Shown piece by piece: positions 30,399-32,900 of a DNA stretch of 44,896 bases. The translations under genes were made by a program, and so were the position numbers. The stretch lies in sequence record PQ436005.1, one strand, 5' to 3'. The stretch's first letter is position 1; every line of letters begins with the position of its first letter. The stretch comes from Escherichia phage vB_Eco_K-02. The notes beneath the pieces are model-generated. The model was not told the DNA's origin. It ran no database searches and saw nothing but the letters and a program-made list of their open reading frames with translations.

Positions 30399-30427
30399 TT
30401 GCACTCCCCAATATAATAGCGTACTAT
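30399..30427 (+). promoter_or_regulatory. sigma70-like promoter with conserved box (TTGCAC-N17-TACTAT)
   Basis: -35 30399..30404, -10 30422..30427; box CCCCAATATAATAGCGTACTATTCA. Confidence 0.6.
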
Positions 30428-30469
30428 TCACTTACACCAACGATGTTATCTCAAATCAGGAGTTATGTT

Positions 30470-30661
30470 ATGACCGGTATCACTATGTTCTTCTTAATTA
30501 TTTTTGTAGCCGTTTATTTTATCCCGTTTTTGGTGGCACATATGCGTAACCATAAAGCAAAGCTGGCGATATTCATGGCTAACTTATTTCTCGGGTGGAT
30601 TCTGTTGCCGTGGGTATTCATTTTAATCTGGGCTTGCAACTCGAACGTGAAAGAGAAGTAG
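30470..30661 (+). CDS. Imm-like superinfection immunity membrane protein
   Basis: AGGAG SD before ATG 30470; YFIPFLVAHMRNHKAKLAIFMANLFLGWILLPWVFILIWA matches the small two-TM Imm family pattern. Confidence 0.5.
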   Translation: MTGITMFFLIIFVAVYFIPFLVAHMRNHKAKLAIFMANLFLGWILLPWVFILIWACNSNVKEK

Positions 30662-30699
30662 GCTACTATAAGACAAATCCTAAACACGAGGAAGTAAGC

Positions 30700-31830
30700 A
30701 TGGCCCAGAAGAAAATAACCGACGAGCAATTACAGGAAGAATTGAACGCCGGGATGAAGAATATCGATATCGCCCGTAAATACGGAATCTCAGACCGCGT
30801 TATCCGAATCCGTAAAGCGAAGCTGGCTAAGAAAGGCGTAGGCCACGGGCGCGACGTTAGTCACCTTGTACCAGACGGTTACAAGATTAAAGGAACGTCG
30901 TCCCTGGTGGACGAGTTCGGCAACACTAAGTTGCAATGGGTTAAGACCGACGCTGATGCCGAACGTCAGGTTGAATTGATGAAAGCCGTAATAGAGGGCA
31001 TGAAGTCAGAGATTACGCCCGTTGCGCCTGTTAAACCGGCACGAGCCAAACGTGACGATAAACTACTCAATCTTTACACGGTATCTGATTTCCATCTCGG
31101 TATGTTAGCCTGGGCTGACGAGAGCGGCGACGACTGGGATATGAAAATCGCGGAGGACTTATTCTCTCGTTGGTTTGATGCTGCGTTTCAGAAAGCACCG
31201 GATGCAGGTACGGGGGTTATTAATCTTCTTGGCGACTTAGCTCACTTCGATAGTCTTGACGCCGTTACACCGGCGAGTGGTCATGTCCTTGACGCCGACA
31301 CGCGTTACCAGAAACTTGTCCGCTACATGGTTCGCATGGTCCGCCGTGTTGTTGATATGGCTCTGGTTAAGCATAAAACTGTTCGCTTGCTTATAGTTCA
31401 GGGGAACCACGACGAATCCGGGATGATTTGGCTGGCGGAGATGTTCAGCACACTGTACGACAACGAGCCTCGTGTATTCGTCGATACGTCGCCGGATGTT
31501 TACAAGATGGTGCAACACGGCAAAACGACGCTGTTCTTCCATCACGGGCATAAAGCACGATTCGACGCTATCGAACCGGTTATGATTGCCAAGTTCCGTA
31601 AAGCGTTCGGCGAGAGTGTTTACAGCTACGCCCACGTAGGCCATCTGCACCACCAGAAGATTGTAGAAAGCCGTAACATGATTGTTGAGCAACACCGCAC
31701 CTTAGCGGCTAAAGACGCCTACGCCTCTCGCGGCGGATGGATGTCGGGCCGCAGTGCAAATGTAATTACTTATAGCGCCGAATATGGCGAGGTCGCACGT
31801 TTAACTATTTCACCGGAGATGCTGGGATGA
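30700..31830 (+). CDS. HTH domain + calcineurin-like metallophosphoesterase
   Basis: GAGGAAG SD; N-terminal HTH (NIDIARKYGISDRVIRIRKAKL); MPP motifs DFHLG, GDLAHFD, GNHDE, HHGH, GHLHH. Confidence 0.65.
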   Translation: MAQKKITDEQLQEELNAGMKNIDIARKYGISDRVIRIRKAKLAKKGVGHGRDVSHLVPDGYKIKGTSSLVDEFGNTKLQWVKTDADAERQVELMKAVIEGMKSEITPVAPVKPARAKRDDKLLNLYTVSDFHLGMLAWADESGDDWDMKIAEDLFSRWFDAAFQKAPDAGTGVINLLGDLAHFDSLDAVTPASGHVLDADTRYQKLVRYMVRMVRRVVDMALVKHKTVRLLIVQGNHDESGMIWLAEMFSTLYDNEPRVFVDTSPDVYKMVQHGKTTLFFHHGHKARFDAIEPVMIAKFRKAFGESVYSYAHVGHLHHQKIVESRNMIVEQHRTLAAKDAYASRGGWMSGRSANVITYSAEYGEVARLTISPEMLG

Positions 31831-32315
31831 AAGATATTGTAATTTTCGATTTAGACGGGACATTGGCCGACGGTACCCATCGCTTACACCTGTTACCAAA
31901 AGATAACTACGGAGAAACGTGGGCGTGGAAGCCATTTAACATGGCCTGCAAAGATGACGCTCCGATATACGACAATATCCATTTGTGTAGCGTACTGTGG
32001 CATTCCGGACTTACTATAATTATCCTTACCGGGCGAAGTGATGACGCTGAGGAGGAGACTCGCGAATGGTTACGAGAGAATAACGTTAGGTTTGACACGC
32101 TAATCATGCGCAGCAAACACGACAACAGAAAAGACATCGTAATTAAAGAAGAGGTGTTGCGTGCTTTCGGACTGGAAAGAATCTTGTGTGCGTTCGACGA
32201 CTCTCCAGCGGTAATAAAGCATTTCCGTGACCTCGGCATAACCGCACACGCAGTTACCGAATACGACTGTAACGGGAACTCTACACACTTAAAACCACAC
32301 GGGAGCGATAAATAA
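31827..32315 (+). CDS. HAD-superfamily phosphatase (polynucleotide 3'-phosphatase / nucleotidase-like)
   Basis: DxDGT nucleophile motif FDLDGTLADG; ILTGRS; KxxxDD-type motif (RKDIVIKEE...AFDDSP); ATGA coupling with upstream gene. Confidence 0.7.
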   Translation: MKDIVIFDLDGTLADGTHRLHLLPKDNYGETWAWKPFNMACKDDAPIYDNIHLCSVLWHSGLTIIILTGRSDDAEEETREWLRENNVRFDTLIMRSKHDNRKDIVIKEEVLRAFGLERILCAFDDSPAVIKHFRDLGITAHAVTEYDCNGNSTHLKPHGSDK

Positions 32316-32869
32316 TGGCTAAGGTAATTATTCTTAATGGCCCTGCGGGTTGCGGGAAAGACACGCTTGCTATGGCGCTGGTAGAAATGGGCTTTGCGAA
32401 AGGAACTACCAGTTTCAAGAATCCAATGTTCAATATTGCTTTGGCAGCGTTAGGCCAGGATGCTTACCACGAATTTCTCGACGGCTACGACGACCGGGCG
32501 CGGAAAGAAAAACCCGAGGGTTTTCTTAATGGGTTGTCCCGCCGCCAGTTAATGATTGCCATTTCTGAGCAATTCATTAAACCGGTATTCGGCGATGATT
32601 ATTTCGGTAAGTATCTTGCTGAAAACTTGCCTGACGGCGACGAAGTTTTTGTAGTGTCCGACGGTGGATTCGCCAGTGAAGTTGCCCCTATCGTCGCCGC
32701 AGGGCATGACGTGCAAATCGTTCGCCTCCATCGTGACGGCTATACGTTCATCGGCGATAGCCGTGGCTATCTGTATGATGTTAGTGGTGTAAAAGATTAC
32801 GACACCTACATCATACCGGGTGACGTTAAATCGAACGTTATAGACATTGCTTTAAAATTAGGTTTGTAA
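32315..32869 (+). CDS. P-loop kinase, dNMP kinase-like
   Basis: Walker A GPAGCGKDT; overall pattern resembles T4 gp1-type deoxynucleotide monophosphate kinases (from memory, not searched). Confidence 0.6.
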   Translation: MAKVIILNGPAGCGKDTLAMALVEMGFAKGTTSFKNPMFNIALAALGQDAYHEFLDGYDDRARKEKPEGFLNGLSRRQLMIAISEQFIKPVFGDDYFGKYLAENLPDGDEVFVVSDGGFASEVAPIVAAGHDVQIVRLHRDGYTFIGDSRGYLYDVSGVKDYDTYIIPGDVKSNVIDIALKLGL

Positions 32870-32871
32870 GA

Positions 32872-32900
32872 AAAAGGCCCCGAAAGGGGCCTTAGTTTTA
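32872..32900. terminator. bidirectional rho-independent terminator
   Basis: aaggcccc-gaaa-ggggcctt then AGTTTTA; same stem as the terminator at 20297..20326. Confidence 0.75.

Follow-up and report, generated by a model that had tools for sequence, protein, structure and literature searches.

A Four-Gene Opposite-Strand Cassette in the Tail Module of Escherichia Phage vB_Eco_K-02 and Its Possible Role in Nucleotide Supply

Gene Content of the Cassette

Escherichia phage vB_Eco_K-02 (sequence record PQ436005.1) carries a plus-strand cassette of four genes, which encode an Imm-family membrane protein, a helix-turn-helix (HTH) metallophosphoesterase (MPP), a PNKP-type HAD phosphatase, and a P-loop kinase. 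It was analyzed within a window of 44,896 nucleotides, which is the whole stretch of phage DNA considered here, and all positions are those of the window. Tentatively, and with a little less than even confidence, the putative nuclease, the HAD phosphatase, and the kinase are proposed to feed DNA breakdown products jointly into the deoxynucleoside triphosphate (dNTP) pool. The four genes are as follows.

30470..30661, plus strand: Imm-family membrane protein, 63 aa, recognized by an Imm_superinfect match
30700..31830, plus strand: HTH and metallophosphoesterase protein (MPP), 376 aa, assigned from motifs and fold
31827..32315, plus strand: stand-alone PNKP-type HAD phosphatase, 162 aa, recognized by a HAD_PNKP match
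32315..32869, plus strand: P-loop kinase, 184 aa, with a predicted T4 gp1-like (NMP-kinase) fold

The Imm open frame spans 30443..30661 on the plus strand, and the 63-aa form starts from the ATG at 30470, with AGGAG 6 nt earlier. The MPP open frame spans 30595..31830; its 376-aa form starts from the ATG at 30700, is preceded by GAGGAAG, and agrees in length with the gene as annotated in nearly all close relatives. Direct reading of the sequence bears out the start/stop coupling of the last three genes that an earlier note on this DNA had described: the MPP stop and HAD start overlap in ATGA (31827-31830), and the HAD stop and kinase start overlap in TAATG (32313-32317).

All four genes are real and under purifying selection. 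Pairwise ratios of nonsynonymous to synonymous substitution (dN/dS) against four relatives are 0.02-0.07 for the MPP, 0.06-0.14 for the HAD phosphatase, 0.08-0.24 for the kinase, and 0.06-0.12 for Imm, with 0.06-0.09 for the tail tube. The MPP is thus more tightly constrained than the HAD phosphatase and kinase, and more tightly than the tail tube.

The HTH-Metallophosphoesterase

The MPP matches phrog_704, named "DNA repair exonuclease", at 1.4e-167. It contains five MPP motifs: D130xH132, G178D179, G235N236H237D238, H282, and G314H315xH317. These are invariant in 35 relatives of 31-50% identity and also in 60 aligned relatives, which confirms the architecture of an HTH followed by a metallophosphoesterase with all five motifs that the earlier note had proposed. 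Membership in the metallophosphoesterases rests on motifs and fold because the Pfam scores lie below the cut-offs (18.9 against 21.5 bits for Metallophos and 21.7 against 27 bits for Metallophos_2); matches to these two families occur in 8 of the 35 relatives at E <= 0.01. Conservation is lowest in the N-terminal ~50 residues, where many different HTH families are matched across the relatives.

Single-sequence and profile searches of the PDB returned HTH matches only for the MPP and P-loop matches only for the kinase, so that a fold comparison was needed. The MPP family profile reached Mre11/SbcD in the PDB at E = 1.6-2.8 only. The structure model of the MPP has a pLDDT of 84, and its closest fold among metallophosphoesterases is Mre11/SbcD, while the fold comparison set it outside the PPP phosphatases. 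Neither a solved nor a named viral structure comes closer, and BFVD holds only unnamed or generically named viral MPPs. Judged from the model, the MPP folds like Mre11/SbcD and not like lambda phosphatase, and it is most likely a DNA nuclease or phosphodiesterase. Of the two kinds of resemblance that the earlier note had allowed, the Mre11/SbcD-like one agrees with the modeled fold, whereas the PP-lambda-like one is dropped because neither PPP signatures nor the PPP fold were found.

A role of the MPP as a Ser/Thr phosphatase of the lambda-phosphatase type, or as a cyclic-nucleotide phosphodiesterase, directed at host signaling or an immune second messenger, is very unlikely. Some GenBank records do name it a serine/threonine phosphatase. 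However, the PPP signatures are GDxHG, GDxVDRG, and GNHE, and the corresponding MPP motifs SDFHLG, GDLAHFD, and GNHD do not match them. The presence of an N-terminal HTH suggests that the ligand is DNA, and the fold scores also disfavor a protein phosphatase.

The HAD Phosphatase and the Kinase

The HAD protein matches Pfam HAD_PNKP (PF25109) at 3.3e-20, with 73.1 bits against a cut-off of 27.6, and has the nucleophile motif FDLDGT at residues 7-12 (FDLDGTL), as expected of the DxDGT-bearing HAD phosphatase named in the earlier note. Its sequence matches in the PDB are Pnkp1 (4xrp, 4e-6) and T4 Pnkp (5uj0, 2e-4; 1ltq, 2e-3). By these matches it is classified as a PNKP-type phosphatase, and as a phosphatase only. 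The GenBank label "polynucleotide kinase" is therefore a misnomer for it.

The kinase matches phrog_139 at 5.8e-45; the label "dNMP kinase" is PHROG's own name for that family and does not by itself place gp1 in it. No Pfam family matched the kinase. Its P-loop reads GPAGCGKDT, and LNGPxGxGKD is invariant in an alignment of 30 sequences, in which SDGGFxxE, VRLHRxG, and GDSRxY are also conserved. The AlphaFold model has a pLDDT of 94, and its best structural match is the mononucleotide kinase T4 gp1, with T4 Pnkp outside the top 60. By hhalign, the kinase aligns to T4 gp1 with 46% probability over the first 44 N-terminal columns only. The model thus gives the kinase a gp1-like fold but does not make it a proven gp1 ortholog, and the dNMP-kinase-like P-loop kinase of the earlier description stands in that form.

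The order of a HAD phosphatase followed by a kinase suggests a common two-enzyme module in a Pnkp-like layout, which probably acts on mononucleotides. A different use of the same layout would be end healing as a counter-defense: with 3'- or 2',3'-cyclic phosphates stripped by the HAD phosphatase, a phosphate added to 5'-OH ends by the kinase, and ends trimmed by the MPP, tRNA or DNA cut by a defense nuclease would be repaired, as by T4 Pnkp together with Rnl1. This alternative draws on the nearest solved relatives of the HAD protein, namely the RNA-repair Pnkp1 and T4 Pnkp phosphatase domains, and on the way the two adjacent genes mimic the two activities of Pnkp. Some bacterial Pnkp enzymes also have a phosphoesterase domain of the MPP type, and cleavage by MPE-type MPP nucleases leaves 3'-phosphates.

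End healing is nevertheless quite unlikely. The kinase has gp1 as its best fold match and is not Pnk-like, and its neighbors in other phages are nucleotide-metabolism genes. The whole gene map was taken from the annotation of the relative OR594183.1 (98.4% identical), whose 83 annotated genes include no RNA or DNA ligase and which has no unassigned non-tail open reading frame (ORF) long enough for an RNA ligase. E. coli RtcB joins 3'-P/5'-OH ends directly, where healing would be no help, and none of the four cassette proteins matched a PADLOC defense-system family. The earlier note had offered nucleotide salvage and end healing against anticodon nucleases side by side; these points weaken the second, and nucleotide salvage is the tentatively favored reading.

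The Imm Protein

The first gene product matches Pfam Imm_superinfect (PF14373) at 1.8e-13, with 50.6 bits against a cut-off of 27.9, and phrog_1039 ("immunity to superinfection") at 3e-24. It has two hydrophobic segments, at residues ~4-23 and ~30-54, with the basic loop HMRNHKAK between them; Kyte-Doolittle windows exceed 2 at residues 4-23 and 32-54. Family match and predicted topology together uphold the earlier description of an Imm-like membrane protein. In the K1B4 transcriptome paper, the Imm gene falls into a late-peaking class with DNA-polymerase and methylase genes, but the time classes are too coarse to serve as evidence. NCBIfam gave nothing above cut-off, and literature searches for functional work on Guernseyvirinae, the subfamily to which this phage is assigned below, found no experiments on the four genes.

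Control Elements

The cassette is bounded by the following elements.

30292..30469, no strand assigned: conserved intergenic control region between the minus-strand chaperone gene and the plus-strand cassette
30399..30427, plus strand: sigma-70-like promoter candidate TTGCAC-17-TACTAT, matching 7/12 consensus positions and below the scan threshold
32874..32893, both strands: bidirectional intrinsic terminator, called on both strands and common to the tail-tube gene

Over five aligned phages of Kagunavirus and Jerseyvirus, mean column identity in the intergenic region is 84%. In the same 5/5 phages, from two genera, the promoter candidate keeps the hexamers TTGC(A/G)C and TA(C/T)TAT with 17-nt spacing, and the spacer itself varies. 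A cassette promoter at 30399..30427 is plausible on this conservation. The separate promoter proposed in the earlier note stays a candidate: its hexamers and spacing are conserved, although the scan did not call it and only 7 of 12 positions fit the consensus. A search for structured RNA found that 30300-30400 folds no better than shuffles on either strand (z = -0.67 and -0.24).

At the other end, the terminator hairpin has an 8-bp stem with 6 GC pairs and T-runs on both strands, and the bidirectional terminator of the earlier note was called at 32874-32893. The 34 bp at 32867-32900, which include it, are 100% identical in many Salmonella Jerseyviruses carrying other cargo; these have a Roi-like DNA-binding gene upstream of the terminator instead of the HAD and kinase genes. 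Sequence comparison thus marks the terminator as the fixed boundary of a variable slot.

Two further features of the intergenic region were noticed. By eye, a minus-strand extended -10-like element, TGcTAGAAT, lies at 30384-30392, ~95 nt ahead of the start of the chaperone gene, and reads TGtTAGAAT in Bas72 and TGcTATTCT in a Jerseyvirus. The promoter scan, which needs a -35 element, did not call it. The chaperone, tape-measure, and distal-tail genes could have their own promoter in this element, divergent from the cassette promoter, in which case the tail module would be two transcription units. In addition, relatives annotate a 37-aa "hypothetical protein" upstream of Imm (30303-30416 on the plus strand; 14115-14228 in OR594183.1). 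It is probably not a gene, because it shares sequence with both the conserved control region and the promoter candidate.

Genome Setting and Variable Cargo

The best megablast match of the region is Escherichia phage vB_EcoS-phiEc4, with 99.9% identity and 100% query coverage. The search returned 322 phage records, and after vB_EcoS-phiEc4 these belong to Kagunavirus and Jerseyvirus of the subfamily Guernseyvirinae; by sequence, the vB_Eco_K-02 stretch is assigned as a Kagunavirus (Guernseyvirinae) siphophage genome. In its own orientation, OR594183.1 runs from terminase, portal, and head genes to neck and tail tube, then to the opposite-strand four-gene cassette, followed by chaperones, tape measure, and distal tail, opposite-strand replication genes, and small early and lysis genes. 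The cassette holds the sole nucleotide-metabolism genes in this gene map. OR594183.1 carries the classification Autographiviridae/Kayfunavirus and a vB_EcoM name; its gene map matches a Kagunavirus siphophage, and the taxonomy line looks wrong.

The genes that flank the cassette in vB_Eco_K-02 are listed below.

32898..34070, minus strand: tail-tube gene (Pfam Phage_tube_2, 1.6e-37)
29875..30291, minus strand: tail-assembly-chaperone ORF (Pfam Phage_TAC_4, 1.1e-7)
29510..29869, minus strand: tail-assembly-chaperone ORF (Pfam Phage_TAC_18, 1.4e-18)
27178..29517, minus strand: tape measure gene, assigned from the relative's annotation

The ORF table places the plus-strand cassette between the tail-tube gene and the chaperone and tape-measure genes, opposite in strand to both flanks, and GC skew is positive over it, as expected for a strand switch. 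The 2.5-kb plus-strand block that the earlier note saw splitting the tail module is present, with four plus-strand ORFs between minus-strand flanks. It is not a peculiarity of this phage, however: an opposite-strand cargo operon of variable content is the standard layout in Guernseyvirinae.

This variation was followed with a 4.5-kb query spanning both flanks. Bas72 and XY2 have a 108-aa ORF, the MPP, and a 76-aa ORF in the slot, and NTEC3 has the same genes plus an HNH homing endonuclease. Jerseyvirus TUMS_E19 has Imm, an MPP (55% identical), HNH, a small ORF, and a Roi-like protein. At >=80% identity, the kinase occurs in 52 phage records versus 291 for the MPP. From these comparisons, the MPP is the slot's only constant gene, and the HAD and kinase genes are optional and missing in viable close relatives.

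Elsewhere in the genome, the replication module has a DUF2800/PD-(D/E)XK (Cas4-like) exonuclease beside an Enc34-type ssDNA-binding protein (11805-13046 and 13374-14006). These are probably a recombination pair unrelated to the cassette phosphoesterase. Whether the exonuclease at 11805-13046 is a second MPP paralog came into question because phrog_284 matched the cassette MPP at 3e-14, and the idea was rejected, as the exonuclease is a DUF2800/PD-(D/E)XK protein with no similarity to the MPP. As for the position of the kinase, T4 gene 1 (dNMP kinase; NC_000866, 74649-75374) also lies among morphogenesis genes 57A, 3, 2, and 4, and is a classical precedent for a nucleotide kinase inside structural genes.

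The Same Genes in Other Phage Backbones

The cassette genes recur, in several combinations, in phages of other backbones. A T1-like contig carries an MPP (41% identical), a HAD_PNKP gene, and a kinase (43% identical) in that order between a Dam methylase and the lysis genes. In Jedunavirus, the MPP and a HAD_PNKP gene form a coupled pair upstream of terminase. A 74-kb contig has an MPP (29% identical), DUF4406, and kinase series beside dCMP deaminase, DNA ligase, and PolA; the DUF4406 protein of this distant phage (5549-6007 of the contig) stands in the place of the HAD phosphatase between MPP and kinase. DUF4406 belongs to the nucleoside deoxyribosyltransferase-like clan, which suggests that the middle position takes interchangeable nucleotide-acting enzymes. 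At another locus the kinase adjoins dCMP deaminase, with ThyX nearby, and in Kuravirus it adjoins an exonuclease.

The MPP also stands alone. It lies directly upstream of the small terminase gene in Dhillonvirus (76% identical) and between Dam and holin in the T1-like phage tiwna. Three metagenomic relatives, none with HAD or kinase genes, adjoin lysis genes or terminase, and another lies in a lambdoid nin-like region. The site occupied by the HTH-MPP in diverse phages, adjoining the lysis cassette or just before the small terminase gene, is the position of the lambdoid late-gene regulator. On one metagenomic contig, a gene at 6565-6927 with a match to the Acb2/Tad1-hairpin Pfam family, an anti-CBASS/anti-Thoeris sponge family, lies ~1.4 kb downstream of the MPP homolog.

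Across 80 IMG/VR kinase loci, 64 of them outside Kagunavirus, a HAD gene lies upstream on the same strand at 65 loci (49 of the 64), and the MPP, HAD, and kinase genes are contiguous at 26 (10 of the 64); because related T1-like phages supply many of these loci, the numbers do not represent independent events. The recurrence of the trio or of the HAD-kinase pair in unrelated phage backbones supports a shared role. That the genes act together, which the earlier note had offered as an inference, gains support from the recurring MPP-HAD-kinase order and from the 65 loci with an upstream HAD gene.

The T1-like phages have been treated in print. In the Drexlerviridae, a core module of exonuclease, holin, endolysin, and spanin genes, the first of which is this MPP, is persistent in 508/522 members (PMC13164509). 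Where the SH3 gene is missing, the genes annotated "polynucleotide kinase" and "dNMP kinase" are the commonest directly after the exonuclease, and the authors of that 2026 study suggest that these two add to the replication module and boost nucleotide supply. The trio and the nucleotide-supply idea are thus already published for Drexlerviridae, and the cassette itself is already known, with the same family names annotated in hundreds of GenBank records.

These comparisons bear on a second explanation, the main rival, which is possible but less probable than joint nucleotide supply. Under it there would be no joint pathway: the slot would be a permissive site for cargo, and the MPP, a two-enzyme nucleotide module of HAD phosphatase and kinase, and Imm would have three independent functions, that of the MPP lying in replication, recombination, concatemer processing, or a task at the early-to-late boundary, for example. 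Close relatives swap Imm for a 108-aa ORF upstream of the MPP, and the HAD and kinase genes for a 76-aa ORF downstream, with or without HNH and Roi. The MPP is far commoner than its kinase-linked form: an exhaustive search gave 4644 clusters of homologs at 50% identity, and tblastn found the gene in 2004/50,697 phage records (~4%). Its persistence at the head of the Drexlerviridae core module, its dN/dS of 0.02-0.07 against 0.06-0.24 for the HAD and kinase genes, and its sites beside lysis genes or upstream of the small terminase in diverse phages fit independent functions as well. Three observations do not: the MPP, HAD, and kinase genes are start/stop coupled in vB_Eco_K-02, their order occurs in at least three unrelated backbones, and another nucleotide-type enzyme, DUF4406, lies between MPP and kinase in a distant phage.

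Proposed Role

In the nucleotide-supply reading, the operon would be transcribed from its own promoter region and end at the terminator common to the tail-tube gene. The Mre11-like nuclease, tethered by its HTH, would release nucleotides or oligonucleotides, and the PNKP-type HAD phosphatase would clear blocking 3'-phosphates. The gp1-like kinase would then turn dNMPs into dNDPs as substrates of the host NDP kinase, and Imm would be a separate small membrane protein on the same transcript. The reading takes gene structure, family and fold assignments, coupling, selection, and recurrent synteny as observed, and from them proposes enzymatic activities, substrates, timing, and pathway. It counts in its favor the fold and family calls, the coupling and selection, the trio elsewhere, the DUF4406 variant, the nucleotide-metabolism neighbors, and the Jedunavirus MPP-HAD pair.

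Infection biology offers weak and indirect support. Guernseyvirinae are sensitive to Ec2ApeA, which is activated by deoxydinucleotides that the authors attribute to DNA degradation during infection (bioRxiv 10.64898/2026.01.26.701840). This sensitivity may reflect DNA breakdown in Guernseyvirinae infections.

Several observations weigh against joint nucleotide supply. Most MPP-bearing phages are without the HAD and kinase genes (Dhillonvirus, tiwna, Bas72, XY2, NTEC3, Jerseyvirus E19, and metagenomic contigs), so the core job of the MPP does not need them and the trio is not obligate. Conversely, many T1-like loci have the HAD and kinase genes >6 kb from any MPP. Because Bas72, XY2, and NTEC3 are close relatives that are viable in nature without the HAD and kinase genes, any benefit must be conditional. 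The sequence-level link between the kinase and T4 gp1 is weak, as the hhalign result indicates, and the kinase family has D-G-G-F at the position of the D-T-R substrate motif of gp1.

A further proposal, in two versions, is unlikely. In the first, the HTH-MPP would be an unrecognized core phage function in which the variable HTH directs it to phage-specific DNA sites, and it could act at the late-development switch or in genome processing or packaging. Its occurrence in ~4% of phages, its Drexlerviridae persistence, its tight constraint, its lysis or terminase neighborhood, and its variable HTH are open to this reading. In the second, the MPP would join with the HAD phosphatase and kinase in a ligase-independent end-processing system, and the kinase could be a non-Pnk polynucleotide kinase.

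The cassette itself is ordinary, and the remaining interest lies in the abundant HTH-MPP family and in the mislabeled HAD-then-kinase pair. The HTH-MPP family has no characterized member, and its label of "DNA repair exonuclease" comes by annotation transfer only; defining its activity would clear a large block of guesswork in siphophage annotation. The HAD gene, widely mislabeled "polynucleotide kinase", recurs upstream of the gp1-like kinase. Natural Kagunavirus variants with and without the HAD and kinase genes, BASEL isolates among them, make the role directly testable.

Comparison with Known Systems

Imm resembles T4 Imm in its match to PF14373 above the cut-off and as a small two-segment membrane protein. 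T4 Imm has 83 aa; the cassette protein is shorter and siphophage-encoded, and the likeness is one of family match and predicted membrane topology.

The MPP is most like the Mre11/SbcD nucleases, its closest fold among metallophosphoesterases. Unlike them, it has an N-terminal HTH, and also a beta-hairpin domain that is absent in Mre11. No Rad50/SbcC partner is annotated in OR594183.1, where its neighbors are Imm, the HAD phosphatase, and the kinase. The two also differ in that no link is seen at the sequence level (E > 1) and the Pfam Metallophos score is below cut-off.

The HAD phosphatase shares the HAD_PNKP family, the DxDGT motif, and the PDB matches 4xrp, 5uj0, and 1ltq with T4 Pnkp (PseT) and bacterial Pnkp1. 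In contrast to T4-type Pnkp, it is a stand-alone protein of 162 aa without the fused N-terminal Pnk-type kinase domain; the cassette kinase is a separate downstream gene whose predicted fold is not Pnk-like, and there is no partner ligase. The kinase, in turn, resembles the T4 gp1 dNMP kinase (PDB 1DEK) in a fold with a GKD(T) P-loop, and human phosphomevalonate kinase is a fold relative. It differs from gp1 in being 57 residues shorter, in its conserved core motifs, and in a profile alignment confined to the N-terminal ~44 residues.

As a locus, the cassette is most like the Drexlerviridae series of "DNA repair exonuclease", "polynucleotide kinase", and "dNMP kinase" (PMC13164509), which has the same three families in the same order. 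In Drexlerviridae, these genes close the replication region and the lysis genes follow directly. In vB_Eco_K-02, the genes are instead inverted within the tail module, with Imm first, their own promoter region, and a shared terminator.

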